Shown: positions 15,280 through 56,909, counted from the stretch's first letter. The stretch: 64,000 bases of DNA from Candidatus Taylorbacteria bacterium RIFCSPLOWO2_12_FULL_43_20 (GCA_001821295.1 MHSK01000017.1:31-64030); one strand, 5' to 3'. Program-made: numbers and translations. The notes: generated by a model from the letters alone, not told the origin.

Positions 15280-15423
15280 GTAACTGCTCACAAGACCGAG
15301 TGGTGTCATTCCCGCGAAGGCGGGAATCTAGGCCATATTTTGATCTGGATTCCCGTTTTCACGGGAATGACAGAAGAAAAGAAGGCTGTGGTGTGGCCAT
15401 TACTCGGTCTTGTGAGGAGTTAC
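15280..15423. mobile_element. MITE-A, full copy (TIR GTAACTSCTCACAAGACCGAGT; 8-bp TSD CGAGAAAA)
   Basis: TIRs flank two inverted gtcattcccgcgaa(a/g)gcgggaat hairpins. The flanking 8-mers cgagaaaa at 15272-15279 and 15424-15431 are identical. Spurious track ORFs 15210..15497 and 15256..15438 are translations of this element. Confidence 0.75.
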
Positions 15424-17467: not shown

Positions 17468-17615
17468 ATAGGACTTACGCGTTTCGTCATAATTTAAAAC
17501 ATTTCCCATCTATCATTCCCACTTTCTTCTGTCATTCCCGCGAAAGCGGGAATCCAGTGTATGCAGATAAAAACCTGGATTCCCGCTTTCGCGGGAATGA
17601 CACCACTCGGGGTTG
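17468..17615. mobile_element. chimeric MITE-like element (family-1 left TIR, double GTCATTCCCGCGAAAGCGGGAAT hairpin core, MITE-A-like right end)
   Basis: ataggacttacgcg...tgtcattcccgcgaaagcgggaatccag..ctggattcccgctttcgcgggaatgacaccactcgggg. Confidence 0.55.
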
Positions 17616-17627
17616 TGGACAGATGCT

Positions 17628-20394: not shown

Positions 20395-20455
20395 CCGTTC
20401 CCATCTGTCATTCCCGCGAAAGCGGGAATGACAGGGAGCGCGGGAATGACATCAT
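20395..20455. repeat. double-hairpin repeat fragment (GTCATTCCCGCGAAAGCGGGAATGACA x2)
   Basis: tgtcattcccgcgaaagcgggaatgacagggagcgcgggaatgacatc, lying between pilin paralogs 6 and 7. Confidence 0.6.
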
Positions 20456-22204: not shown

Positions 22205-22330
22205 ATAGGACTTACGTGTTTGATGTCATTCCCGCGAATGCGGGAATCCAGAGTATGCAGATAGATCCTAGATTCCCGCTTTCGCGGGAATGACAGAAGA
22301 AAGCGGGAATGACATCAAACGCGTAAGTAC
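22205..22330. mobile_element. MITE-like element with GTACTTACGCGTTTGATGTCATTCCCGC TIRs and a double-hairpin core
   Basis: ataggacttacgtgtttgatgtcattcccgcgaatgcgggaatccag..tagattcccgctttcgcgggaatgacag..gggaatgacatcaaacgcgtaagtact. Confidence 0.65.
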
Positions 22331-26673: not shown

Positions 26674-26790
26674 GTATCTACTCACAAACCCGAGTGATGT
26701 CATTCCCGTAAAAACAGGAATCCAGCAAGTATTTTGATCTGGATTCCAGCCTGCGCGAGAATGACGCCACTCAAACTTGTGAGTAAATAC
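26674..26790. mobile_element. MITE-A variant copy (TIR GTATCTACTCACAAACCCGAGTG / CACTCAAACTTGTGAGTAAATAC)
   Basis: Degenerate hairpins gtcattcccgtaaaaacaggaatccag..ctggattccagcctgcgcgagaatgac. No clean TSD. Confidence 0.5.
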
Positions 26791-36350: not shown

Positions 36351-38477
36351 ATGAACATTATAAGTAATAAATCGGAAAAAAGTTTAAGTAAACGATTAAC
36401 GGTAGTAGTGCTCGGTCTCGCGCTTATAGCATCCGGTTTTGTTGTTCCAGCGAACACTGAAGCTCAAAGTGCTACAAGCGTTCTTGTACAATTTAACCGA
36501 GATTTGACCATGGGCAGTACGGGCACTGACGTAGCCGCCTTACAGACAATCCTGATCGAAAAAGGTTTTCTTAATATTCCTCCAGGTGTGGCGAAGGGAT
36601 ATTTCGGACCTCTTACCAGAAGCGCGCTAGCGAGGTACCAGGCCTCTGTAGGCATTATGCCGTCAGTAGGATATTTCGGACCGATTACCAAAGCGCACTT
36701 TAACTCTATGGCGGGAGTTACTCCCCAGGTCCCAGGATGTCCTCCGGGAGCAATATTCAATTTCTTGACAGGCGCGCGATGCGACGCTGTTCAAGTTCCG
36801 GGTTGCCCGCCGGGAGCGATATTCAACTTCCTGACGGGTGTAAGATGCGACTTGGCAAGTCCGTCCCCTTCCCCTTCGCCAACGCCTGATGGTGATGGTG
36901 ATGATGATGATGAGTTAAGTGGCGGTGCGGGATCAATATCCAGCTATAAACTTATCTCTGCCCTAAACAACGAAAGAGTCGGGGAAGATGAAAAAGATGT
37001 AAATATCGCCGGCTTAGAGATTGAAGCATCCCAAGGATCAGATATTGAAATTAGCGCGATACGACTCGTATTTGATGGGGGCACAGCAACAAGCGATTTT
37101 GACAGATATGCGGATGACGTTTCAATCTGGCTTGACGGTGAAGAAGTGGCTAGAGTAGATGCCAGTGAATTTGACGACGACAATGACTGGAGCTCTACCG
37201 TGACATTAGACAGAGGAGCAATTATCCGTAGAGGCGATAAAGGAGAAGTCATTGTGGCAATTTCAGGCATCAGGAATCTAGACTCGGCAGATGAAGGAGA
37301 CACCTGGACGGTAGATTTCAGAAGTGTGAGATTCAGAGACGCTCAAGGAGCAACCATCAGTGAAGATCCGGGTACCGCAGTAAGAACATTGTCTTTTGAG
37401 TCGTTCGCGGCGGCGCGTAACGCGGAGCTAAGAATCAGAGCCGATGATGATAGTATTAATCAAGAAAGAGTGATTGACGTGCACGCGACAGACGACACGG
37501 ACAACGTAGCCATAACATCCTTTACTCTTGAGGCAAGAGGAAATTCTGACTTAGAGATCACAAAATTCGGAGTGAACGTTGATGTTACAGGTGCGGCTCA
37601 CGTAGATGATGCTATCTCTGCAATATACCTTTGGATAGACGGTGAAAGAGTGGCTACAGGAGTCGCGTTTGACGATGCCGACGGGGTAAATGTGGGACAG
37701 GATGAAGATTACCTATTTGACGACATTGACTTCATCATAGAAGCCGGCGATACGGTTAACGCTGAAATAAGAGTGGACTTTAATTCAACAGCCGGCGATC
37801 TTGATGAAGGCGATACTATTATGGTAACTCTTGGGGAGACCGAAACGGACCAGGCAAATCTGGTAGACGTGGAGGATGAGTCGGGTACGCAACTTCAAGA
37901 TGCCGATATAAGCGGACAAGTTACCGCGGGACCGCATTCACTGTTTGCCGCCGGTATAAATGTTACGTTTGTAAGCTCAAACGCGACAACAGACGGAGCG
38001 TCCGCGGGAACGGCAACCGGAGATGATACGGGAATCTATGAAATTGTCTTTGACGTAACATCATTCGGTGACGATGTCTTCATTGACGGAGACGTAATTG
38101 CTTCCACCACCGCAAATGCCATAGTAGCCGGAGCGGACGGTATAATCTGGGGAACAACCACAAATTCCAGCGCTACGACGACATTTGACAGCATAGTATC
38201 CTTTGCGATTCTTGAAGCGGAAGGGTTTGAAGGATCCAGTAGTTCAGCTCCCGACGTGACAACAACCGGCGCTCTATCTTACGGAGTTCCGGAGGGAGAA
38301 ACCCGCAGATTCAAACTCAAGATAAATCTCGGTCCTGTTACGGGAGACGTCCAAGCGGGCATAAGGTTGCGTGGCATCAGCTGGGACACAGACAGCGGTG
38401 ATACTCATGACAATCTATACAACTTTAATCTTGGACGATTCAGGACAGATACAATATTCTTGAATCAACAAGATTAA
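36351..38477 (+). CDS. large secreted acidic surface protein with peptidoglycan-binding (PG_binding_1-like) domain and tandem PGCPPGAIFNFLTGxRCD repeats
   Basis: Signal peptide, then GSTGTDVAALQTILIEKGF...GYFGPLTRSALARYQ (PGBD-like). Two 63-bp tandem units at 36727-36852 encode VPGCPPGAIFNFLTG(A/V)RCD. An SPSPSPSPTPDGDGDDDDE linker precedes an approximately 500-aa D/E/T/G-rich domain. Confidence 0.6.
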   Translation: MNIISNKSEKSLSKRLTVVVLGLALIASGFVVPANTEAQSATSVLVQFNRDLTMGSTGTDVAALQTILIEKGFLNIPPGVAKGYFGPLTRSALARYQASVGIMPSVGYFGPITKAHFNSMAGVTPQVPGCPPGAIFNFLTGARCDAVQVPGCPPGAIFNFLTGVRCDLASPSPSPSPTPDGDGDDDDELSGGAGSISSYKLISALNNERVGEDEKDVNIAGLEIEASQGSDIEISAIRLVFDGGTATSDFDRYADDVSIWLDGEEVARVDASEFDDDNDWSSTVTLDRGAIIRRGDKGEVIVAISGIRNLDSADEGDTWTVDFRSVRFRDAQGATISEDPGTAVRTLSFESFAAARNAELRIRADDDSINQERVIDVHATDDTDNVAITSFTLEARGNSDLEITKFGVNVDVTGAAHVDDAISAIYLWIDGERVATGVAFDDADGVNVGQDEDYLFDDIDFIIEAGDTVNAEIRVDFNSTAGDLDEGDTIMVTLGETETDQANLVDVEDESGTQLQDADISGQVTAGPHSLFAAGINVTFVSSNATTDGASAGTATGDDTGIYEIVFDVTSFGDDVFIDGDVIASTTANAIVAGADGIIWGTTTNSSATTTFDSIVSFAILEAEGFEGSSSSAPDVTTTGALSYGVPEGETRRFKLKINLGPVTGDVQAGIRLRGISWDTDSGDTHDNLYNFNLGRFRTDTIFLNQQD

Positions 38478-38521
38478 ACGATCAGCTAAGGCAAAAAAGA
38501 ACAGCAAGATAGAAAAACACA

Positions 38522-38556
38522 AAGAACCCCCTCAAGGGGGTTCTTTGTGTTTTTCT
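38522..38556 (+). terminator. rho-independent terminator (agaaccccctcaagggggttct + T-run)
   Basis: 9-bp G/C-rich stem followed by ttgtgtttttc, 45 bp after the stop of the 36351..38477 gene. Confidence 0.75.
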
Positions 38557-38756
38557 ATTCTCAGTTAACTTTAATAACTGTGTCGCAAAACATTACACCC
38601 CGCAGTCCCGTCCCTATTCAAACTGTGAAAAGCAAGACCTCCGCCCAACTGACAAAAAAAACAGCGCGTTTGCGCCGTTTGTAAATTTTAAGAGCGGCAC
38701 CACAGACCGTTCCCCATTCGTGTGCGCTTTTCGTTAAGCGGTATCTACTATGATCG

Positions 38757-39401
38757 CTACCTCTCAACGAACATACGTCCAATCCCCCTCCTGACACGAT
38801 TATCGGATGCATATTCCAAAATACACCGTCTTGCATTTCTATATTCAGACGATTGCTGGGATGATAGCGTTCGGCCAAATTCTTCTTCTGCCAACACTAC
38901 GGATTGGATATTGTAAAATTTGCACCAATAGTATACCCACCGGCAAGTAAGGGATATATCCCATCCCGACACAAAATAGACAACATCAGGCCTGAGCCGT
39001 GCTAGTATATTTTGGTAAAAATGCCTCAGAACAGGCATGCAACGAGGACGGTCATGCCGTTTCGTCAATGATTCCTCGTAGCTTCTTATCCACTGAGCGA
39101 ACTCAGCCAGCGGCACCACAGATTCATTGCGTTCCAGCAGTCTATCCGTAAAATGCTTGGCAGACGGTAATTTCAAATCATAATTGGTATATTCGGCTTC
39201 ACTTACTCCCATGACCATGCATAAAGGTCTTCCGACTCGCTTTGCCACTATTTCTGCTATCTTGTACAACTGTCCCGGTTGTTTGGCCCGCTTCAGCATA
39301 ATTCTCTCTTGCTCCGTCCAATTTTGCTTGTGCATAATTAAGCGTGTGTATGATGTAAAGATCTGGACAAATACTACTACAGCTTGTTGCCGAGTCAACA
39401 C
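38757..39401 (-). CDS. hypothetical protein (possibly a degraded or foreign gene)
   Basis: 214-aa ORF with no recognisable domain, in a compositionally atypical stretch (38.56-39.41 kb) between a terminator and a MITE. Competing short ORFs lie on the plus strand. Confidence 0.25.
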   Translation of the reverse strand: MLTRQQAVVVFVQIFTSYTRLIMHKQNWTEQERIMLKRAKQPGQLYKIAEIVAKRVGRPLCMVMGVSEAEYTNYDLKLPSAKHFTDRLLERNESVVPLAEFAQWIRSYEESLTKRHDRPRCMPVLRHFYQNILARLRPDVVYFVSGWDISLTCRWVYYWCKFYNIQSVVLAEEEFGRTLSSQQSSEYRNARRCILEYASDNRVRRGIGRMFVER

Positions 39402-39409
39402 ACTTACTT

Positions 39410-39512
39410 GTATCTGCTCACAAGACTGAGTAATCTGCTAACTACAGCCTTCTTTTCTTCTGTCATACCCGCGAAAGCGGGAATGACACCACTCGGCCTT
39501 ATGAGCAGATAC
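39410..39512. mobile_element. MITE-A, short single-hairpin copy (TIR GTATCTGCTCACAAGACTGAGT; 8-bp TSD ACTTACTT)
   Basis: Identical 8-mers acttactt at 39402-39409 and 39513-39520 flank the element. Confidence 0.75.
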
Positions 39513-39720
39513 ACTTACTTCGCGTAAACGAACACACATAAGGATTGCAATCTCCTAACACGCCTACATACGCTCTGTCAAGCACCACCGAGGCTTTGCG
39601 AGGTGAGAAGCGAATACATGGAGCTTCGCAAGACCTTGAGCATTTTGTCTTCAAAATGCGAAAGGTTTACCGCGTCTGTAAGACGGCAGGCGGGGCGTTC
39701 ATCCGTTCCGTTTCCGTTCG

Positions 39721-40065
39721 TGTAAAATTCGAGCGAATGATATAATTAGTTCACCAAGAGAAACATTGGTCGGAAGTAAGAAAGCGGAGCGATTTTGCGG
39801 AAGCCGTTAAGTTCTGTATTGGTGAACTAATTATATCATTCGCTCGAATTTTACACGAGAAAAAAGGATAGCCAACGCGCCAAGCGCGTGGTAACTTGAA
39901 ACTTAATCGTACGCTCCGATTAAACGCCACCGGCCGCCGAGTACGGCGGCTTTGCCTCGCAGAAAATTTTCCTTGCATTTCTGATTTTGCGCGCGCCCGT
40001 CTTTTTTAAAATATGGAAAGGAAATTTTCTGCTCGGCTTCCGCGAAACGTGGTGGCGGCTACATA
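39721..40065. repeat. left boundary repeat of tRNA-Glu-associated cassette (direct-repeat unit A + inverted unit B')
   Basis: 39721-39830 (35-bp IR + 68-bp core, ending TGGTGA) is a direct copy of 42006-42112. 39826-40065 is the reverse complement of 41803-42040. Spurious track ORF 39751..39978 lies inside. Confidence 0.8.
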
Positions 40066-40128
40066 CAATATAGAAAATAGAAAACCCGTGACCATATTTC
40101 AGATCACGGGCGAGATTTTTCTCTCGGA

Positions 40129-40710
40129 TTAGACTTGCAGCTCACCAGTCCAAGGACTCTTGCGCGAAATTACGGCAAACAAGGTACCCGGCGGAAATCC
40201 TTTCTCCTTTGACCCAGGAATGCGCTCGATCTCATGCCTCTGTAATTTCGCCCTCCCATCACCGTCGAGGACGATAGCTAGTGTCCAACCAGGTTTGTCG
40301 CTAGCTTTCGAATGACCTCCAATGGCGACTATTGGGTACTGACAGTGACATTGTTCGTGTACCTTTGTATGCCATTTAGCTGCCCATTGCGCGTATAGTG
40401 CGTTTATCCAAGCATCTGACGCGGGCTTTCCTAGGCCAATGAGTCGGTCATGAGCTTCCTCTTCCTCAACCCAGGAGTTTTGAGAAAAACACAGGAATTG
40501 CACATACCCCATTTCTTTATTACTAACACCGACCCACAATCCCGTTTCCGTGTAGGTTTGCACCTTGTCGATAACTGAGCAGAGTAACTCTTTGGAGTGA
40601 GGTTGAACCAGCGCTTTCCAGAAGCGCTCGTTGGCTCCGTGTTTCCTGGCCAACATTATTAATTGGTGAATGAGACCGATCTCTTTACCGAATTCAGACT
40701 CGCCATTCAT
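40129..40710 (-). CDS. hypothetical protein (cassette cargo; Trp/His/Cys-rich, higher GC than surroundings)
   Basis: 193-aa ORF, divergently oriented from the toxin-antitoxin pair, with no recognisable domain and a codon composition visibly more GC-rich than flanking genes. Confidence 0.5.
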   Translation of the reverse strand: MNGESEFGKEIGLIHQLIMLARKHGANERFWKALVQPHSKELLCSVIDKVQTYTETGLWVGVSNKEMGYVQFLCFSQNSWVEEEEAHDRLIGLGKPASDAWINALYAQWAAKWHTKVHEQCHCQYPIVAIGGHSKASDKPGWTLAIVLDGDGRAKLQRHEIERIPGSKEKGFPPGTLFAVISRKSPWTGELQV

Positions 40711-40905
40711 GGCATGTCCTTTCTCGTTTGTGCCTCGTCGTTTAAGACATGGCGTTTAACTTTTTGCTAGATGACTTGGCCAAAGGTTTCGTCATAGCAG
40801 AGAATTACCAAAGATTTAGCAACTCTCTACTATGACAAAACAGTAAGTGGTTTCAAGGTGCTTTTACTGCCGACAGTGTACACTATATGACTATATATGT
40901 CAAGC

Positions 40906-40935
40906 TTGAATTTTTTCATCGTTTAACCGTTATAT
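40906..40935 (+). promoter_or_regulatory. candidate sigma70-like promoter (TTGAAT-18 nt-TTATAT) and AT-rich palindrome upstream of the antitoxin gene
   Basis: ttgaat tttttcatcgtttaaccg ttatat lies 16 nt before ATG 40952. An upstream imperfect palindrome cactatatgactatatatgtca is a possible operator. Confidence 0.3.
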
Positions 40936-40951
40936 GGTAATATAAACAACA

Positions 40952-41449
40952 ATGGCTAGGATAAACCAAAAAAAATACAAAAACGCCGTTCTTTTCTTTG
41001 CAAGAAAAATTCAGAACGGCACTTTGGGTAAGCTCAAAATGATGAAGCTTCTCTATTTTCTTGATTTTGATTTCTTTGAAAAATTCGGCCGTTCAATCAC
41101 CGGCGATGAATATCTCCGATTTGAAAATGGACCCGTGCCACATATGGGAGAAAAAATCCTCAAGGAGATGAACGGAAAAGAAATCAAAATCACCAAGCGA
41201 AAAGTTGGCGAGGGTTACAATGACCAAATGCATATTGAAGCGTTGGCTGATTTTGACGTAAATGTTTTTGAGAAAGAGGAGCTGCTCATGCTTGAAGAAA
41301 TTGCGAGCAAGTGGGAGAAATTTACTGGATCAGAAATGAAAAATGCCAGTCATGGCGAAGCCCCGTGGATTGCCACGAAACCGGATGATGTAATTGATTA
41401 TAATCTCGCGCTCTATCGGAACAAATACGGAGAGATGGCGAAAGTATGA
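40952..41449 (+). CDS. Panacea-domain (DUF4065, GepA/SocA-like) antitoxin-type protein
   Basis: LGKLKMMKLLYFLDFDFFEKFGRSITGDEYLRFENGPVPHMGEKILKEMNG matches the DUF4065 core pattern (L.KL.KLLYY.....L...G.PLF.E...AW.HGPV). Confidence 0.6.
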   Translation: MARINQKKYKNAVLFFARKIQNGTLGKLKMMKLLYFLDFDFFEKFGRSITGDEYLRFENGPVPHMGEKILKEMNGKEIKITKRKVGEGYNDQMHIEALADFDVNVFEKEELLMLEEIASKWEKFTGSEMKNASHGEAPWIATKPDDVIDYNLALYRNKYGEMAKV

Positions 41450-41459
41450 TTAACTCGCT

Positions 41460-41801
41460 ATGGAACTTTCTCGGCATGACGATCTTGAAAAAGATCTACG
41501 AAATCTAAAACGCTTTCCAACTCCACGAGAATCTTTAGAGGCATGGGAACGCCTCTTTAGTCTGAAAGGACTCCGAGAAACTCCGGGTGTTGACCCATTC
41601 CGAGGATTTGGTAATGCGAAAATTTACAAAGGGCGAGTCGTGCCGTTGAAAGAGAACATGGGAAAGTCAAAAGGTTATCGGGTCATCGTCCAAATAATTT
41701 CCCATGATTGTTTTAAGATTCTCGTATTTTCTCGTCACGGAATTTATCACGACGAGCAAGATTTGATTGATATTGTCAAAGCTCGTTTGATTATTTGTTA
41801 G
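41460..41801 (+). CDS. HigB-like / RelE-ParE superfamily toxin
   Basis: 113 aa. GKSKGYRVIVQIISHDCFKILVFSRHGIYHDE matches the HigB/RelE core (GK..GGYRIIY......I.LL.I..K.E). Starts 11 bp after the Panacea gene. Confidence 0.6.
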   Translation: MELSRHDDLEKDLRNLKRFPTPRESLEAWERLFSLKGLRETPGVDPFRGFGNAKIYKGRVVPLKENMGKSKGYRVIVQIISHDCFKILVFSRHGIYHDEQDLIDIVKARLIIC

Positions 41802-41802
41802 C

Positions 41803-42112
41803 CTCCACCGCGCTTTCGCGCGGAAGCCGAGCAGAAAATTTCCTTTCCATATTTTAAAAAAGACGGGCGCGCGCAAAATCAGAAATGCAAGGAAAATTTT
41901 CTGCGAGGCAAAGCCGCCGTACTCGGCGGCCGGTGGCGTTTAATCGGAGCGTACGATTAAGTTTCAAGTTACCACGCGCTTGGCGCGTTGGCTATCCTTT
42001 TTTCTCGTGTAAAATTCGAGCGAATGATATGATTAGTTCACCAAGAGAAACATTGGTCGGAAGTAAGAAAGCGGAGCGATTTTGCGGAAGCCGTTAAGTT
42101 CTGTATTGGTGA
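41803..42112. repeat. right boundary repeat of cassette (inverted unit B + direct-repeat unit A ending in the tRNA-Glu 3' tail)
   Basis: B begins at the toxin stop codon. Unit A ends tggtga at 42107-42112, which is the reverse complement of the tRNA CCA end plus discriminator. Spurious track ORF 41885..42097 lies inside. Confidence 0.8.
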
Positions 42113-42181
42113 CCCTACCGGGAATCGAACCCGGATTACCGGCTTGAAAAGCCGATGTCCTAACCGTTAGACGATAGGGCC
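42107..42181 (-). tRNA. tRNA-Glu (anticodon UUC), CCA encoded
   Basis: The reverse complement GGCCCTATCGTCTAACGGTTAGGACATCGGCTTTTCAAGCCGGTAATCCGGGTTCGATTCCCGGTAGGGTCACCA folds as a cloverleaf with anticodon loop TTTTCAA. Confidence 0.85.
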
Positions 42182-42292
42182 TTGCGCAGAACGCGGAATT
42201 TCTAATTTCTAATTTTTAGAAAATTGAAAAGGTAAAAAAATACTAGCATTTATTGGAAAATTGGCAAAAAAATCTTTTTCATCCACTGACTC

Positions 42293-42505
42293 TTATTTTT
42301 TTGCATCCGGTCCAAATTTTCCTTCAAACTGATCTGCGTATTTTTCTTGTTTCCCCTCATGGCTGTCTATCCAGCCGCCGCTTTTGTCATCCGGCTTTTT
42401 ACCTTGCGCTTCCATGTCATATTTCCGTGTATTTTTTATCTCTCCCTCCCCCGCATCCACGGCGCGGCGCATCATTTCAAAAGGATTTTCTTTTTCTATT
42501 GACAT
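42293..42505 (-). CDS. hypothetical small acidic Lys/Gly/Asp-rich protein
   Basis: 70 aa, a low-complexity hydrophilic protein reminiscent of small stress proteins, with no clear RBS. The plus-strand alternative 42253..42528 looks non-coding. Confidence 0.25.
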   Translation of the reverse strand: MSIEKENPFEMMRRAVDAGEGEIKNTRKYDMEAQGKKPDDKSGGWIDSHEGKQEKYADQFEGKFGPDAKK

Positions 42506-42730
42506 GTATTGATCATACTATTTTTTGAAGAAAACGCAAAGAATGCTAGGATTGTATATACAACAACCCAAGGGTTGCCTTCCCCACCCACTACGCTCCT
42601 CATTCGCCAAAGGATACGGAAGGACAAGCACCTACTTCGCTAAAGCTACGAAGGTCAAGGAAAGCTACGCGGGTCAAGAAGAGCTACGGCAACCCGATGG
42701 GTGCCTGCGCGTAAAGCTACAGCAACCCAA

Positions 42731-42818
42731 GGGAGGAGTGCCAGAGTGGTCGAATGGGCCGCACTCGAAATGCGGTGTGCTCGTAAGGGTACCGTGAGTT
42801 CGAATCTCACCTCCTCCG
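42731..42818 (+). tRNA. tRNA-Ser (anticodon CGA), long variable arm, no encoded CCA
   Basis: GGAGGAGTGCCAGAGTGGTCGAATGGGCCGCACTCGAAATGCGGTGTGCTCGTAAGGGTACCGTGAGTTCGAATCTCACCTCCTCCG, anticodon loop CTCGAAA. Confidence 0.85.
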
Positions 42819-42994
42819 TAATTCAGGATTTTGCAAGTGGAAAGACGATGCCTCGCGGCGCGAAACGCGCCGCTCGGCTAGGATGTGAAAGGGGTTTTTT
42901 GAGTAAAAACGAAAAGGATTTATCAATGAAGGGCAAAAGAAATTTTTTCATCAATTTTATAAAATCGAAATAATTAACCGTCAATTTTAATATT

Positions 42995-43315
42995 ATGAAC
43001 TCGAAAGGATTTTCTAAAAATGGATTAATTTTGATAATCGTTGGAGTTTTAATTGTAGTCGGTGGAATTTATTGGTGGCAGAAAGAAACAATAAACGCAA
43101 TAATTTTTGATAGTAGTAATATCAATCACGCCCCCGAGTATTGTAATTGGCGACCAGAAAAAGCAGACTACGGTCCATGTGCTGTAGAATGGGGAGCATA
43201 TTTTGACGGAGAAAGATGTATTGGCATAGGTGGTTGCGGTCCGGTACCAGAAGTTCCTTTTACTTCAGTAGAAAATTGTAATAACATATGCGAAGTGAAG
43301 ACCGACAGATTTTGA
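42995..43315 (+). CDS. small secreted six-Cys protein with Kunitz/BPTI-like cysteine pattern
   Basis: TM/signal segment LILIIVGVLIVVGGIYWW, then C-x11-GPC-A-x5-YF-x4-C-x5-C-x13-C-x3-C (EYCNWRPEKADYGPCAVEWGAYFDGERCIGIGGCGPVPEVPFTSVENCNNIC). Compare BPTI: C..P..GPCKA...RYFY.....C..F.YGGC...NNF.S.EDC...C. Confidence 0.5.
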   Translation: MNSKGFSKNGLILIIVGVLIVVGGIYWWQKETINAIIFDSSNINHAPEYCNWRPEKADYGPCAVEWGAYFDGERCIGIGGCGPVPEVPFTSVENCNNICEVKTDRF

Positions 43316-43584
43316 AGTAATTTTCCGCCAAGAAAAATTCGGCAAAATATCTTTTGTCTTTTTTATAAAAAACCCTGCCGTAAGGACGACAGGGTATTTC
43401 TCTCTTTATATTTTGTGAGCAAACGTCACAGCAAATTCTTTAACACAGCGTAGATACCCCCTTTTTCTTCGACAGAAGATCAAGCTGAGACATCCGTCGC
43501 CTGATTGCATCCGGAAATCTTCTCTCCACTCGCCCTCGATCAGCAGCTTCCATCTTTGGCGACAGATTCTCTCTCTTTGAATTC

Positions 43585-43626
43585 AGAAAAAGAAAGTGGC
43601 CGTCATTCAATTAAGGATTGACGGCC
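43585..43626 (-). terminator. rho-independent terminator for the minus-strand gene 43654..43947
   Basis: Hairpin ggccgtca-N13-tgacggcc with an A-run on the plus strand (a T-run on the minus strand). Confidence 0.55.
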
Positions 43627-43653
43627 ATGATGATGGAAGTTAGCGGCAATGAG

Positions 43654-43947
43654 TCAACGACGTTGTTTCCGTCCCCACCATATAAAAAAGGTCTCGATGT
43701 TTGGAAGACCAAGGTCGTCCAGTACCATCGAAATGAATACGATGGCGTAAACGAATTTATAGCCAAGATCTATACCGACGAAGTTCGTGATCTTCTGCGC
43801 CACTTCGTCACCAACAATGAACGTAACTGGGATCATGGCGAAGACAAAGGCAATCGCAAGGATGAAGTAGAAAATCAGGGCGACAAAGATAGCGAAGAAT
43901 CCGTTCCTTACAACTATCATAAAGAACTCAGAAGCTTTCCCACGCAT
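43654..43947 (-). CDS. hypothetical small multi-pass membrane protein
   Basis: 97 aa, strongly hydrophobic, with a good RBS (AAAGGAGAGAAACC-ATG on the minus strand). Preferred over the overlapping plus-strand ORF 43618..43965, which is hydrophilic and lacks an RBS. Confidence 0.5.
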   Translation of the reverse strand: MRGKASEFFMIVVRNGFFAIFVALIFYFILAIAFVFAMIPVTFIVGDEVAQKITNFVGIDLGYKFVYAIVFISMVLDDLGLPNIETFFIWWGRKQRR

Positions 43948-44146
43948 GGTTTCTCTCCTTTCTAGGAACTGTTTGAGTACTTCTGAACGTCATGTTCAGA
44001 CTGCCGTATATTCTAATATAACTTAACAAATACGTCAAAAGTACCTAGTCGTACGTACCATCTCGCCACTTGGTTTATGCGCTTGATTTAAGGTTCAGTA
44101 GGTATAAAATCTGTATCAGAGATCACAATCAACAAAACTTTACAAA

Positions 44147-44467
44147 ATGCACACTCGAGCAGTCATATATGTGGTAAAGGCAGAAAACACCTTTGACAAA
44201 CTTAGGCGCGTAGCGTTAACGGACCAATGTCAGTATTGTATTCAGCAGACACAAATGCTTATTTCTCACATCCGGTCATTAGCGCAAGCAGTTGAAGCGT
44301 ACGGAGATGACAACAGAAGATACGCGGCACTCCGCCTTGAATGTCCGGTATCGGACGTCACCGAGGAACAAGCCATGGCACATTATATTGAAAAGGGAGG
44401 CGCCGAGGGTTTCCGCAAAAGACAAGAAGAGGCAAAAAAGGAACAACAAACGGCTCAATTTGGATGA
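44147..44467 (+). CDS. hypothetical protein
   Basis: 106 aa with no recognised domain. Followed immediately by a strong terminator. Divergent from the 43654..43947 gene. Confidence 0.4.
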   Translation: MHTRAVIYVVKAENTFDKLRRVALTDQCQYCIQQTQMLISHIRSLAQAVEAYGDDNRRYAALRLECPVSDVTEEQAMAHYIEKGGAEGFRKRQEEAKKEQQTAQFG

Positions 44468-44493
44468 CAAGACATACGTCTTGTCTTTTTTTA
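44466..44493 (+). terminator. rho-independent terminator (gacaagacatacgtcttgtc + TTTTTTT)
   Basis: 8-bp stem followed by a 7-T run, directly after stop 44467. Confidence 0.8.
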
Positions 44494-44778
44494 TGGTAGA
44501 TACCGCTTAACGAAAAGCGCACACGAATGAGAAACACCCCATCCCCAGCATCTTCTTTTACCCGATAAAAGAAGATGCTGGGACTTCCCCTCTAACTCCC
44601 CTTCGCTCTAAGAAGAGCTTCGGCGGAGCATGAGAGGGGAAGAGTGGGGGCACCTATTCCTCTCCTCGCTAGCTGAAACAAACGCGCCGGACGAGTGGCG
44701 TATTTATAAATATGTAAGATTATTAAAGGGGTTTACTTTATTTAGATAATGTGTTAATATAGCATTAAATCACAAATT

Positions 44779-46317
44779 ATGCTTAAAACAAAGAAAAAGA
44801 GAATTTTCGTCATCATAGCCGCGCTCAGCATCATCGCGCTCGCCGTTTTCTTCGTATCCAGAGAGGAGGATCCTCTATCGCGCTATGAACTGGAGAACGC
44901 GCAACGTGGCGATATTGTTGAAGTCGTGAGCATAACCGGCACAGTGAAGCCCTCAAAGGAAGTTTCGCTCGGGTTTGTAAGGGCAGGCAAAATCAACGCG
45001 ATCAGCGTCAAAGTCGGCGATAAGGTCAACAAAGGTAAAGTGTTGGTCTCTATGGATGACTCTGATATTCGCGCCGAATTGTCACGCGCCAAAATCGCAT
45101 TAGAGGCGGAGAAAATCAACCTGGAAAATATAAAAAGGGCGGGAGCCAGAATAGCGAAAAACGGCAATAACATCTCACCCGATGAAGCCGCCGTTTTGAG
45201 CGCGCTCAATCAATACACAGAAAGTTTGAAGGAAGCGTATACGAAAACCGATAATACTGTAAGAACATACGTTGACAAGTTTTTCGGTGACTCGCGACAA
45301 TCCCCACATTTTGGCATAGAAATCCATGACGGAAACGCTAAATATTTTGTCAGTGGCTTACCTGATCAGCAGATCAGCATCAACCGCGAAAAGAGAATGC
45401 TCAACTCCGATTTAAAAATCTGGCGCGAAAGCACAGCGGAAAATTTTTCTTCCGATGTTGACGAAGTATTCGACATCGCTGAAACAACACTGATGAATGC
45501 CGATAGTATGGTCCAAGGCATCGGTGACATTTTGGATTCCAAAACATACACTTCCGCGACTGAAGAAAGCATATATAAAGGACTGCGGTCGGATTTGCAC
45601 ACCGCCCGCTCTGCCATAGTAAACGAATTATCGGCAATACGTCTCACAAAAAATAATTATCTTAAAACGTCGGCAAATTCAAGCCCGGAGGAAATCCGCC
45701 TTGCTGATCTCCAGGTGAAATCCGCTCTAGCAAACATCGCTAGCATTGAAGACCGCCTGAGCGAAACATGGATAGCATCGCCATTTAGCGGTACGGTGGT
45801 TGCCGTAAACGCCGAAACTGGAGAGATAGCTTCAACAAATTCCCCTATCGTAAAAATGATATCATCAGGGCAATACGAGATTGAAGCATTTGTTCCTGAA
45901 TCCGACATCGCAAAAGTCAAAGTAAAAGACACCGCCGAAGTTACACTTGACGCTTATGGAGAAGATGAGATTTTTGAAGCTTTTGTGGCAAGCATTGATC
46001 CTGCCGAAACCGCTCAAGAAGGCATTTCTACATATAAAATCAAATTGGTATTCGTCTCCGATGACTCAAGAATCTTATCCGGAATGACGGCCAACATAGA
46101 CATCTCCACGGAAAAGAAAGAAGACGTTATCAAGATTCCCGAGCGGGCTGTAATACGAGAAAAAGGGGAATATTTCGTAAGAGTTGTAACAGCGTCGGGA
46201 ACCGATGTGGAAAAAAAGAAAGTTGTTCCCGGTATAAGAGGCGCGGACAGTTATAGAGAGATCATTTCCGGAATCAAAGAAGGAGAACAGATTGTCGTGT
46301 TTGATAAACAAGAATAA
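44779..46317 (+). CDS. efflux periplasmic adaptor (membrane fusion protein, MacA/HlyD family) with long coiled-coil insertion
   Basis: N-terminal TM helix, a biotinyl/lipoyl-like hairpin VKPSKEVSLGFVRAGKINAISVKVGDKVNKGKVLVSMDD, and C-terminal beta-barrel/MP domains. 512 aa. Confidence 0.7.
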   Translation: MLKTKKKRIFVIIAALSIIALAVFFVSREEDPLSRYELENAQRGDIVEVVSITGTVKPSKEVSLGFVRAGKINAISVKVGDKVNKGKVLVSMDDSDIRAELSRAKIALEAEKINLENIKRAGARIAKNGNNISPDEAAVLSALNQYTESLKEAYTKTDNTVRTYVDKFFGDSRQSPHFGIEIHDGNAKYFVSGLPDQQISINREKRMLNSDLKIWRESTAENFSSDVDEVFDIAETTLMNADSMVQGIGDILDSKTYTSATEESIYKGLRSDLHTARSAIVNELSAIRLTKNNYLKTSANSSPEEIRLADLQVKSALANIASIEDRLSETWIASPFSGTVVAVNAETGEIASTNSPIVKMISSGQYEIEAFVPESDIAKVKVKDTAEVTLDAYGEDEIFEAFVASIDPAETAQEGISTYKIKLVFVSDDSRILSGMTANIDISTEKKEDVIKIPERAVIREKGEYFVRVVTASGTDVEKKKVVPGIRGADSYREIISGIKEGEQIVVFDKQE

Positions 46318-46318
46318 T

Positions 46319-47038
46319 ATGCCCCCGCTGATTGAGACAAGAAATATCTGTAAAGAGTACAGAGACGGGCAAACAGTTACGCCTGTTCTTGATAACATAT
46401 CACTTCAGATAAGGAAAGGAGAATTTGTGGCAATCATGGGTCCGTCAGGATCAGGCAAATCAACACTGCTTCATATTCTCGGTTTCCTTGACGCGTACTC
46501 GTCCGGAGATTATCTTTTTGAAGGAAAAGAGACATCATCTTACACGGAAGAAGAATCGGCAAAAGTGCGAAACCGGAAAATCGGCTTTGTTTTCCAGGCC
46601 TTCAATCTTCTTGCGCGCGCGAGCGTACTGGACAATGTTAAACTGCCCTTGCTCTATTCAGAAATAGACGAGAAAGAATGGGATGAACGGGCGAGAAAAT
46701 CATTGGAGTCCGTAGGGCTTTCGCATAGGATAAACCACGAACCGAACGAATTATCGGGAGGTGAAAAACAAAGAGCGGCAATCGCAAGAGCTTTGGTCGC
46801 AAACCCTGAAGTGATATTCGCCGATGAGCCGACAGGAAACCTTGATTCCAAATCGGGACAAATGGTCATGGAAACCCTCGAACAGGTCCACCAGAAAGAA
46901 GGGCGGACAATTATCCTCATTACACATGAGACAGAAACGGCGGAACACGCGGAAAGAATTATCAATATCAGAGACGGCAAGATTGAAAAAGACGAAAAAA
47001 TCGCGACGAGACGACTCGCCAAGACTTTCATAAAGTAA
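46319..47038 (+). CDS. ABC transporter ATP-binding protein (MacB/LolD-type)
   Basis: Walker A GPSGSGKST, signature LSGGEKQRAAIARAL, Walker B VIFADEPTGNLD. The track ORF 46292.. overlaps the adaptor gene; ATG 46319 follows its stop. Confidence 0.85.
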   Translation: MPPLIETRNICKEYRDGQTVTPVLDNISLQIRKGEFVAIMGPSGSGKSTLLHILGFLDAYSSGDYLFEGKETSSYTEEESAKVRNRKIGFVFQAFNLLARASVLDNVKLPLLYSEIDEKEWDERARKSLESVGLSHRINHEPNELSGGEKQRAAIARALVANPEVIFADEPTGNLDSKSGQMVMETLEQVHQKEGRTIILITHETETAEHAERIINIRDGKIEKDEKIATRRLAKTFIK

Positions 47039-47043
47039 CACGC

Positions 47044-48279
47044 ATGAGAACAGCCCATACATTCAAATCAGCGTTTAAATCCTTGAGGGCCAATAAAACC
47101 AGATCGGCCCTTACCATACTCGGTATCGTTATCGGAATAACGGCTATCATAATAGTGGTCTCAGTAAGCGAGGGAGCAAAAGGACTGATATTGAGCCAGA
47201 TCAAAGGGCTGGGCGCTAACATAATTTTTATTGAACCCGGCAGAGAACCCGAGGGACCTTCCGATTTCACTCAGATATTGTCAGACTCATTGAAAGATCG
47301 CGAGCTGAAAGCCCTGAACAAAAGAAACATACCCGATCTCAAAGATCTGGCTCCGGCCGTCATGGTGCCTGCCATATTGAGCCGCGGCGGAGAAACAAAA
47401 AACACAAACGTGCTCGGCACTTCTCCGCTTTATGCGGAAATGCTGTCCATTTTCCCGGAACAAGGCGTCTTTTTATCAGATGATGATGTTTTATCAGGAT
47501 CCAACTCCGTGGTTATCGGCTACAATGTCAAAGAAGAGCTTTTCGGCCCGTCCGACGCGCTAGGTGAGAATATAAAAATCAAAAATAAAAATTTCAGGGT
47601 CATCGGCGTCTTTCCGAAGAAAGGGCAAGTGGCTTTTTTTGACGTAGACAACGTGGCAATTATTCCATACACAACAGCCCTGAACTACATATCGGGTTCG
47701 CGGCATTACAATCTGATCATGGCCGAGATCAGCACCGACGAGGCAGTACCCAGAGCCGCCAAGGACATTGAAATAACACTCCGCAATCTGCACTCTATCA
47801 CCGATCCTGAAAAAGACGATTTTCACATTACGACGCAGGAAGATATAGTAGACAGAGTAGGCACGATCACGGGCGTATTGCAGACTCTTCTCGGATCGGT
47901 AGCGGCAATTTCTCTCATAGTGGGAGGTATAGGAATAATGAACATCATGCTCGTGTCTGTAACTGAAAGAACCAGAGAAATAGGACTGAGAAAGGCCCTA
48001 GGCGCTAGACCGGCTGACATACTTTATCAATTTCTTCTTGAAGCAGTGATGCTTACGATCATAGGCGGAGTCATAGGAATTATCTTGGGCGCTTTGTTTT
48101 CATTTACGGTATCCATTGTCTTGAGCAAAACACTTAACCTTGACTGGTCATTTGTTTTTTCCACGAAAGCCGCGGCTCTAGGAATAGCAGTGTCCGGAGG
48201 AATCGGCCTCATTTTCGGAATTTTCCCCGCCCGACGCGCATCCAAGAAAAGCCCTATTGAGGCGCTTAGATACGAATAG
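47044..48279 (+). CDS. ABC transporter permease, FtsX/MacB family
   Basis: Four TM helices with a large periplasmic domain between TM1 and TM2, C-terminal FtsX-like region. 411 aa. Confidence 0.8.
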   Translation: MRTAHTFKSAFKSLRANKTRSALTILGIVIGITAIIIVVSVSEGAKGLILSQIKGLGANIIFIEPGREPEGPSDFTQILSDSLKDRELKALNKRNIPDLKDLAPAVMVPAILSRGGETKNTNVLGTSPLYAEMLSIFPEQGVFLSDDDVLSGSNSVVIGYNVKEELFGPSDALGENIKIKNKNFRVIGVFPKKGQVAFFDVDNVAIIPYTTALNYISGSRHYNLIMAEISTDEAVPRAAKDIEITLRNLHSITDPEKDDFHITTQEDIVDRVGTITGVLQTLLGSVAAISLIVGGIGIMNIMLVSVTERTREIGLRKALGARPADILYQFLLEAVMLTIIGGVIGIILGALFSFTVSIVLSKTLNLDWSFVFSTKAAALGIAVSGGIGLIFGIFPARRASKKSPIEALRYE

Positions 48280-54194: not shown

Positions 54195-54338
54195 GTAACT
54201 CCTCACAAGACCGAGTAATGGCCACACCACAGCCTTCTTTTCTTCTGTCATTCCCGTGAAAACGGGAATCCAGATCAAAATATGGCCTAGATTCCCGCCT
54301 TCGCGGGAATGACACCACTCGGTCTTGTGAGCAGTTAC
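54195..54338. mobile_element. MITE-A, full copy in inverse orientation (8-bp TSD AAACAAAA)
   Basis: TIRs gtaactcctcacaagaccgagt / actcggtcttgtgagcagttac. Identical 8-mers aaacaaaa at 54187-54194 and 54339-54346. Spurious track ORFs 54108..54356 and 54118..54318 translate it. Confidence 0.8.
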
Positions 54339-54394
54339 AAACAAAAAACCAAACACTGGTGTTTGGCTTTTTTCAGGAAAAACCGCTTACTCGT

Positions 54395-55904: not shown

Positions 55905-55985
55905 TTTTATGTCATTCCCGCGAAAGCGGGAATCCAGGGTTTTATCTGCATACTCTGGATTCCCGCTTTCGCGGGAATGACAGAT
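55905..55985. repeat. double-hairpin MITE-B element (TGTCATTCCCGCGAAAGCGGGAATCCAG - spacer - CTGGATTCCCGCTTTCGCGGGAATGACA)
   Basis: Perfect inverted pair. The spacer ggttttatctgcatactc is the reverse complement of the spacer in the 17.55-kb copy. Confidence 0.75.
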
Positions 55986-56490: not shown

Positions 56491-56909
56491 GTTTATATAA
56501 AAGCTATTAATGACAACAGAACGTTTTAACTTCGTTTCCGCTTTTCGTTAAGCGATATCTACTATAAACGGCTAAACTCCACCCATTTTGGAGAAGTCAA
56601 TAAATATACCCCACAGCAGAACTGTGGGGAATTCTGCGTAATTATAAAACAATAACAGCTTAATACTATATTTATAAACCGGAAGAGTCAATGCAACCAC
56701 AGGGTTACAACCCTACGGTAAGCACCAAGCACCAAATAACAATACCAATATACGAATTAATACGAATATACAACTCCGACGCTTCGGTCGGAGCCCCGAC
56801 CGAAGCGTCGGGGATGGATACGAATCACCCCATCCCTCGTACCCCTACGCTCGAAGCGAGCTTCGGCGGAGCAAGGGAGGGGAAGAGGAAGTCGTGTAAA
56901 ATTTTAGCC

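Follow-up and report, generated by a model that had tools for sequence, protein, structure and literature searches.

A candidate Panacea–RelE/HigB-2-like toxin–antitoxin module on a tRNA-Glu-linked presence/absence segment of a Candidatus Taylorbacteria genome

Panacea domains occur beside many kinds of toxin. Kurata et al. 2022 (PMC8832971) described Panacea antitoxins (PanAs) paired with MqsR-like, PemK, ParE, Fic/Doc and toxSAS toxins, and stand-alone Panacea domains have been shown experimentally to neutralise toxins directly (PMC8832971, PMC10440598). Dataset S1 of the former study also holds untested PanA–toxin clusters, in antitoxin–toxin order, whose toxins HHpred annotates as 'Toxin HigB-2 (99.7%)', RelE, YoeB or ParE (PMC8832971). 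Examples from the RelE superfamily are T14/pT15, T28 and the ParE_toxin cluster T59 (PMC8832971). The T14 group includes Candidatus Saccharimonas aalborgensis, a member of the candidate phyla radiation (CPR), together with other Saccharibacteria and archaea (PMC8832971). Here we analyse a gene pair, panA and panT, in a 64,000-nucleotide stretch of DNA (hereafter the window) from Candidatus Taylorbacteria bacterium RIFCSPLOWO2_12_FULL, a CPR/Patescibacteria genome from Rifle groundwater. Only 10 nt separate the panA stop codon from the panT ATG:

40952-41449, plus strand: panA, a 165-aa stand-alone Panacea-domain antitoxin candidate
41460-41801, plus strand: panT, a 113-aa RelE/HigB-2-like toxin candidate

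We consider it quite probable that the pair forms a type II PanAT toxin–antitoxin (TA) module with a RelE/HigB-2-type toxin, mobile among CPR bacteria and DPANN archaea and carried here on a losable tRNA-Glu segment. An original prediction for this DNA had proposed a Panacea antitoxin followed by a RelE/HigB-like toxin. That central claim is supported by a Pfam match, the predicted fold, a family profile and an alignment of the core motifs. Both open reading frames (ORFs) lie where the prediction had placed them on the plus strand, antitoxin first, and the peptides it quoted are found at PanA residues 25-63 and toxin residues 68-99. Judged by sequence conservation, panA and panT are genuine genes and not chance ORFs, because they have many homologues (at least 439 for the toxin, counted as clusters at 90% identity, and at least 522 for PanA) and because both family alignments contain many invariant columns.

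PanA is a clear member of the Panacea family. As claimed, the 165-aa product carries the Panacea/DUF4065 domain: it matches Pfam SocA_Panacea (PF13274) at E=8.4e-19, with 69 bits against a curated gathering score of 25.7, across PanA residues 31-139 and profile positions 2-112 of 113. A domain scan detected Panacea only, with neither a helix-turn-helix (HTH) nor any other domain found, and the SocA equivalog model (NCBIfam NF047745) scored 15.6 bits, below its cut-off of 190. A protein 100% identical to PanA is annotated in Ca. Taylorbacteria RIFCSPLOWO2_12_FULL, and a PHROG search matched PanA to the phage protein families phrog_1281 and phrog_10390.

An AlphaFold (AF2) model of PanA, built from 27 homologues, has moderate confidence (predicted local distance difference test, pLDDT, 66). 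It comprises helices and a beta-hairpin, in broad agreement with the published Panacea architecture (alpha1-alpha7 plus beta1-beta2), with only six helices of at least 4 residues according to DSSP. Residues 124-165 fall below pLDDT 50 in the model, yet their sequence is almost invariant, and this conserved tail reaches about 26 residues past the end of the Pfam match (residue 139 of 165). Because it is conserved yet predicted to be disordered alone, the tail is a candidate element for folding onto the toxin. The possibility of an extra C-terminal domain, raised in the original prediction for checking by structure prediction, was rejected: the Pfam match stops at residue 139, and the low-confidence tail of the model contains only one short helix.

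Linkage of the two genes extends across the family. Exact protein look-ups retrieved a set of homologous loci, and in all of them the toxin gene is directly preceded by a Panacea gene. Scanning one genome per species gave 53 toxin loci (L044-L096), and PanA is directly upstream of the toxin in 52 of these genomes; the lone exception is a toxin at a contig edge. The spacer measures 1-19 nt, with a median of 6, in the 44 complete pairs. Protein lengths hardly vary: PanA has 165-167 aa and the toxin 110-116 aa, apart from one outlying toxin of 130 aa. The surroundings are of at least seven unrelated kinds, including ATP synthase, Fic/RhuM, ribosomal protein L25, Mur ligase, copper ATPase and Y1 transposase genes. 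By these signs, the pair behaves as a mobile TA module.

Hosts of the module span two domains of life. The CPR hosts are Giovannonibacteria, Kaiserbacteria, Sungbacteria, Uhrbacteria, Komeilibacteria, Kuenenbacteria, Zambryskibacteria, Niyogibacteria and Paceibacterota, and the DPANN archaeal hosts are Pacearchaeota, Nanoarchaeota and Aenigmatarchaeota; a few of the 53 loci were labelled Gammaproteobacteria by the submitter. Taken with the labels of metagenome-assembled genomes (MAGs) as binned, this distribution suggests that the module has moved across domains among ultra-small groundwater organisms. Toxins from the DPANN-labelled MAGs (L053, L076, L089, L091, L092, L095 and others) are 57-68% identical.

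The association persists at greater distance. Toxin relatives at 27-33% identity still adjoin a Panacea gene, which in the case of P0135 is co-directional and overlapping. In the distant relatives P0136 and P0142 (L098, L101, L102), the Panacea gene is convergent with the toxin gene; the two meet tail to tail and either overlap by 22 nt or leave a gap of 1 nt, an unusual architecture for a TA system. Toxin genes are decayed or truncated at two loci (L094 and L096, from two Giovannonibacteria/'Saccharibacteria' MAGs) beside PanA genes that can still be aligned (82-88% identity); the L094 alignment spans the whole protein, and that of L096 covers only residues 1-97.

PanA is also the better conserved of the two partners. 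Measured against the window proteins, PanA averages 78.2% identity and the toxin 65.1%; in 43 of 44 pairs the PanA value exceeds that of its toxin. The corresponding all-against-all identities are 75.6% and 64.7%.

Placing the toxin in the RelE superfamily relies on remote homology, because curated libraries give nothing. Searches of Pfam, NCBIfam and PADLOC with the window toxin yielded zero matches even at E<=10, and a PHROGs search returned only two weak matches, both to functionally uncharacterised families (E=0.011 and 0.058). Against the PDB, direct phmmer and a narrow profile (A1) gave noise only (QCR8, Par-6, RecQ1). An exhaustive hidden Markov model (HMM) search of 1.84 billion representatives produced 39 toxin cluster representatives. 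The family profile widened with distant representatives (A3) was the sole PDB search that worked, reaching Vibrio cholerae HigB-2 at E=1.5e-5 (28 bits) and Escherichia coli RelE at E=0.011. The HMM check for a HigB_toxin or RelE-ParE family was therefore answered in part: curated models do not match, and the family profile reaches HigB-2 and RelE.

Distant relatives of the toxin point the same way in the Pfam models they approach. Their sub-threshold matches are PF06296 RelE (1e-4), PF05016 ParE_toxin (1e-3), Gp49 and YafQ, with RelE at 23 bits versus a cut-off of 27 and ParE_toxin at 20.2 versus 23. Two family members carry the IMG name 'RelE of RelBE', and a look-up of distant-relative clusters gave no other name.

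The predicted structure of the toxin resembles HigB-type proteins. The AF2 model is confident (pLDDT 87.7; predicted template-modelling score, pTM, 0.82) and consists of N-terminal helices, four main antiparallel strands and a C-terminal helix. It thus shows the arrangement that marks a RelE fold, with N-terminal helices packed on a 4-5-stranded antiparallel sheet. The best PDB matches in Foldseek are Streptococcus pneumoniae HigB (6af4), Mycobacterium tuberculosis HigB1 (7awk), Helicobacter pylori HP0892 and V. cholerae HigB2 (5jaa). Probabilities for these HigB-type matches are 0.82-1.0, with the very top HigB toxins at 0.98-1.0.

The active site can be compared with that of V. cholerae HigB-2 (VcHigB2), which comprises Arg51, Arg64, Tyr82, Lys84 and a Lys-rich beta2-beta3 loop, Tyr82 being the second most important catalytic residue (PMC5416850). 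We read the residue correspondences by hand from the A3 profile alignment:

VcHigB2 Arg51: toxin R59, invariant in the clade
VcHigB2 Arg64: toxin R74, invariant in the clade
VcHigB2 Lys84: toxin H93, invariant in the clade
VcHigB2 Tyr82: toxin S91, invariant in the clade
VcHigB2 Lys-rich beta2-beta3 loop: toxin KENMGKSKG, a low-confidence loop in the model

Two of the four active-site positions are kept exactly, and one has His for Lys. The Tyr82 position is Tyr in the wider toxin family; in this clade an invariant Y96 lies just downstream, with R92 nearby. Invariant residues of the toxin family include R5, H6, K57, R59, E65, N66, G68 and K69, and also G72, Y73, R74, S91, R92, H93, G94 and Y96. 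The active site thus appears to be largely, though not fully, retained. From homology, fold and these residues, the toxin is most likely a RelE/HigB-2-like ribosome-dependent mRNase.

The same fold could also belong to a DNA-gyrase poison of the ParE type, acting on another target with PanA still as its antitoxin, and this is the main competing account of the toxin's activity. RelE and ParE share a fold and are not safely separable by sequence. PF05016 ParE_toxin makes up most of the sub-threshold Pfam matches among the relatives, Kurata et al. list ParE-type PanA partners, and the Tyr82 equivalent is lost. The comparison with solved structures nevertheless makes such a poison improbable. HigB-2 and RelE are the best profile matches, and among the listed proteins of solved structure PfiT alone is ParE-like, at E=1.4; Foldseek places HigB first and ParE2 16th, at a probability of 0.21. 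Moreover, invariance extends to the basic residues through which HigB-2 binds mRNA phosphates.

Under the reading as a RelE/HigB-2-type module, panA and panT would be co-transcribed from a promoter just upstream of panA, as is probable because the spacer is 10 nt and no terminator lies between the genes. The toxin would enter the ribosomal A site and cleave mRNA, using a basic beta-sheet face formed by K57, R59, K69, R74, R92, H93 and Y96. PanA would neutralise it by direct binding, as shown for other stand-alone PanAs, and the two genes would spread together as a horizontally mobile unit among CPR bacteria and DPANN archaea.

Several observations weigh against this reading. No curated RelE, HigB or ParE model matches the window toxin. 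Foldseek E-values for it are only 0.02-0.25, with template-modelling (TM) scores of 0.51-0.59. The Tyr82 equivalent is an invariant Ser in the toxin clade. Toxin relatives were not found in phage and plasmid collections, and PADLOC gave no match. Antitoxins usually evolve faster than toxins; the conservation of PanA and its partner reverses this pattern and hints at a role for PanA beyond neutralising.

On a further account the pair is not a TA system at all, and the two small, co-conserved proteins share another function, the RelE-like fold being catalytically dead. No curated toxin model matches, a key catalytic Tyr has become Ser, and ten among the NetFlax candidates that Ernits et al. tested were non-toxic in E. 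coli (PMC10440598). We regard this account as highly improbable in view of the invariant basic face and R92-H93...Y96, and of the strict linkage to a known antitoxin domain. Toxin-only decay beside a recognisable PanA (L094, L096) also speaks against it, being expected if an unopposed toxin is harmful.

The reversed conservation brings in another alternative, a sensor–effector defence of the abortive-infection type. Here Panacea would be a constrained sensor of a trigger and the RelE-like protein its effector, and the pair would not be a plain addiction module. Besides the markedly higher conservation of PanA, such a system would suit the horizontal spread across CPR and DPANN, the location in a variable region, and the PanA matches to phrog_1281 and phrog_10390. 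Ernits et al. 2023 have proposed a sensory role for Panacea (PMC10440598), and the higher conservation of PanA fits a constrained role of that kind without proving it. Set against this are the absence of a PADLOC match or a known trigger, and a search of catalogued phages and plasmids in which the module was not found. We think defence in this form unlikely; it is compatible with the PanAT module, our best explanation, rather than exclusive of it.

The PanAT module of the window lies in a cassette next to a tRNA gene. The tRNA-Glu(UUC) is 305 nt beyond the toxin stop, and 226-nt inverted repeats bracket panA, panT and a third gene, ORF193. The features of the cassette are:

39826-42112: presence/absence segment of 2,287 bp, containing ORF193, panA, panT, both inverted-repeat arms and one direct-repeat copy
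39718-39825, plus strand: left copy of the direct repeat, 108 nt, 107/108 identical to the right copy
42005-42112, plus strand: right copy of the direct repeat, its last 6 nt overlapping the tRNA-Glu 3' end
39819-40044: left arm of the inverted repeat, 226 nt, 225/226 identical, with an imperfect extension to 40061
41819-42044: right arm of the inverted repeat, 226 nt, with an imperfect extension to 41799
42107-42181, minus strand: tRNA-Glu(UUC), called by ARAGORN; Rfam tRNA, 65.5 bits
40129-40710, minus strand: ORF193, a divergent ORFan sharing the cassette
40111-40084: terminator-like hairpin following ORF193

The 2,287-bp segment is a presence/absence polymorphism in the same groundwater population, because contigs with the exact empty site exist. 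In these contigs (L027/L034), 36708-39825 is joined to 42005-47315 through a single 108-nt copy, at 100% and 99.96% identity. The empty site is represented by L027/L034 (30.9 kb) and by three similar places, from the same groundwater system. The simplest route to its formation would be loss of the segment by recombination between the 108-bp direct repeats. Like a tRNA-targeting element, the locus combines an empty site with flanking direct repeats, one copy of which reaches into the tRNA 3' end. At this locus, therefore, the empty-site contigs bear out the description of the pair as cargo of a tRNA-linked cassette. The description does not extend to the family: a tRNA occurs within 500 nt in 6 of 53 loci, about what a rough estimate expects by chance, and we rejected tRNA linkage as a family trait.

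The segment encodes no integrase or recombinase, ORF193, panA and panT being its only genes. ORF193 matched only itself among 5.8 billion clusters and nothing in Pfam, NCBIfam, PADLOC or PHROG. We considered it as a recombinase and rejected the idea, given that its only homologue is itself and that it matches no family.

The closest relative (L008-L011, 84% DNA identity) sheds light on the right repeat arm. There the arm is single-copy, with 83-88% identity over about 240 nt (L008 3040-3400 versus 41799-42117), which identifies it by sequence comparison as the module's native 3' flank. Where the window has ORF193, this relative has a gene for a Y1 (IS200/IS605-type) transposase. In L008 the right-arm region runs into 12 nt (TTGGTGACCCTA) that match the 3' end of tRNA-Glu; no tRNA-Glu is present there, and a tRNA-Val comes next. 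The module appears to travel with a fragment of a tRNA end. An Rfam scan of 37500-45000 found two tRNAs only and no match within the inverted repeat. When the repeat arm was folded as RNA, z was about -1.8 for each strand, an indecisive value.

Contigs also differ in the orientation of the cassette. Four (L018, L028, L029, L033) join the right flank to the toxin end, as in the window, and three (L019, L023, L025) join it to the ORF193 end. The reciprocal junction of the latter orientation, with the left flank joined to the toxin end, was absent among the left-flank contigs. Scans of metagenome DNA did not find the filled-left junction, and a scan with the repeat core returned only L008-type contigs. 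The two orientations could be either a real flip-flop inversion or ambiguity in the assembler's path, the latter being possible because the 212-nt perfect repeat exceeds the assembly k-mer (k=141).

These structures allow a bolder reading, in which the 2.3-kb unit is a minimal, mobile but non-autonomous cassette in ultra-small CPR bacteria that excises, flips and re-inserts without a recombinase of its own, is stabilised by panAT, and has in PanA a second, sensor-like function. Its components would be panAT, the ORFan, the 226-bp terminal inverted repeats and the 108-bp direct repeats at tRNA-Glu. We hold out a small chance for it.

Variation extends beyond the cassette ends. L024 (2108-2423) and L026 carry a 99.3%-identical cassette copy that diverges at about 39925, in the left repeat arm, into unrelated sequence, which suggests a further genomic context or a variant of the cassette. 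To the left, a 1.4-kb stretch with ORF192/214 (38379-39805) recurs at 99.8% identity in L037, L042 and L043 with different flanks, either a resolvase fragment or different large surface-protein genes. Because this stretch recurs in different company, the region left of the cassette also looks like a recombination hot spot.

Two families of dispersed repeats occur in the window. A hairpin-containing repeat with the core gtcatacccgcgaaagcgggaatgac lies at 39410-39513 and looks like a repetitive extragenic palindromic (REP) element or a miniature inverted-repeat transposable element (MITE). Further copies are near 15280-15423, 54195-54339, 17523-17624, 22272-22302, 20404-20433, 55907-55984 and 26674-26708. 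Another repeat, of 40-55 nt, is found at 38699-38751, 44490-44535 and 56513-56568, and two of its copies form a 43-nt inverted pair (93%) around the whole 5.7-kb variable region, including both tRNAs.

Upstream of panA, the original prediction had pointed to an imperfect palindrome and a promoter as candidates for autoregulation. Both strings are present, cactatatgactatatatgtca at 40881-40902 and TTGAAT-N18-TTATAT at 40906-40935. As features, however, the palindrome is weak and a promoter consensus scan did not call TTGAAT-N18-TTATAT. The elements that we recognise in this region are:

40881-40902: the proposed imperfect palindrome, with TGAC/GTCA arms of 4 bp around an alternating AT run
40903-40875, minus strand: promoter-like TTGACA-17-TACACT, called by that consensus scan as a 10/12 match, overlapping the proposed palindrome and facing ORF193
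40935-40943, plus strand: extended -10-like TGgTAATAT, 8 nt before the panA ATG, a candidate promoter

TGgTAATAT is the sole upstream block kept across relatives (alignment A2). No Shine-Dalgarno sequence is visible before panA or panT, and the panA transcript may be leaderless or have a very short leader. cactatatgactatatatgtca is better read as a direct repeat of ACTATAT, and it is partly conserved in one relative only (L003), not in L008, L012, L015, L001 or L005. We rejected the palindrome as an operator in view of its 4-bp arms, its poor conservation and a PanA with no recognised DNA-binding domain. Ernits et al. 2023 argue that Panacea itself is probably not a transcriptional autoregulator (PMC10440598). 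With a marginal palindrome and a PanA that lacks an HTH, autoregulation finds no support at this locus.

If the PanAT reading is right, the Panacea network gains a well-populated toxin family that has no Pfam annotation, comprises 439 or more clusters at 90% identity and is found in 53 species genomes. This PanAT type is spread over CPR bacteria and DPANN archaea, where TA biology is almost unexplored. The inverted conservation, with the antitoxin above the toxin, bears on whether Panacea acts as a neutraliser or as a sensor. Filled, empty and possibly flipped alleles within one groundwater population amount to a natural experiment on the retention of DNA by TA systems. Neither the conservation pattern nor the segment polymorphism changes the basic classification.

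How, then, does the module relate to systems already described? Caulobacter SocAB, a type VI TA system that contains the founding Panacea protein, has the Panacea domain PF13274 in common with the window pair. It differs in the partner, a SocB-type DnaN binder there and a RelE-like protein here. Because PanA is not a SocA equivalog and its partner is RelE-like, a ClpXP-adaptor mechanism is not expected.

V. cholerae HigBA2 and E. coli RelBE share the order of the toxin fold, with N-terminal helices, an antiparallel sheet and a C-terminal helix. HigB-2 further shares with the window toxin the beta2 and beta3 arginines (R51-R59, R64-R74) and a basic beta2-beta3 loop. The window toxin has His where HigB-2 has Lys84 and Ser in place of Tyr82, and an invariant Tyr follows 3-5 residues further on. 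Sequence identity is only about 12-16%. The antitoxins of these systems (HigA2, RelB) are unrelated to Panacea, and the window order is antitoxin first, unlike higBA.

The closest likeness is to the T14-type PanATs of Kurata et al., in which a small RelE-superfamily toxin likewise follows Panacea, the genes either overlapping or being set apart by a very short spacer. Compared by description, the T14 toxin carries the HHpred label 'Toxin HigB-2', the same protein that is the best solved match of the window toxin. Several T14 PanAs have an N-terminal HTH, whereas the window PanA has none. The HigB-2/RelE-like pairs in that study are marked 'notest', and none is experimentally validated. The window family belongs to MAGs of Parcubacteria and DPANN; in the part of the Dataset S1 text available to us, the terms 'Parcubacteria' and 'Patescibacteria' do not appear. 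The pairing of Panacea with a HigB-2/RelE/ParE-like protein, antitoxin first, is thus already described, and the window pair joins a known kind. What is added here is a specific unannotated CPR/DPANN toxin family, the inverted conservation pattern and the local polymorphism of the cassette.

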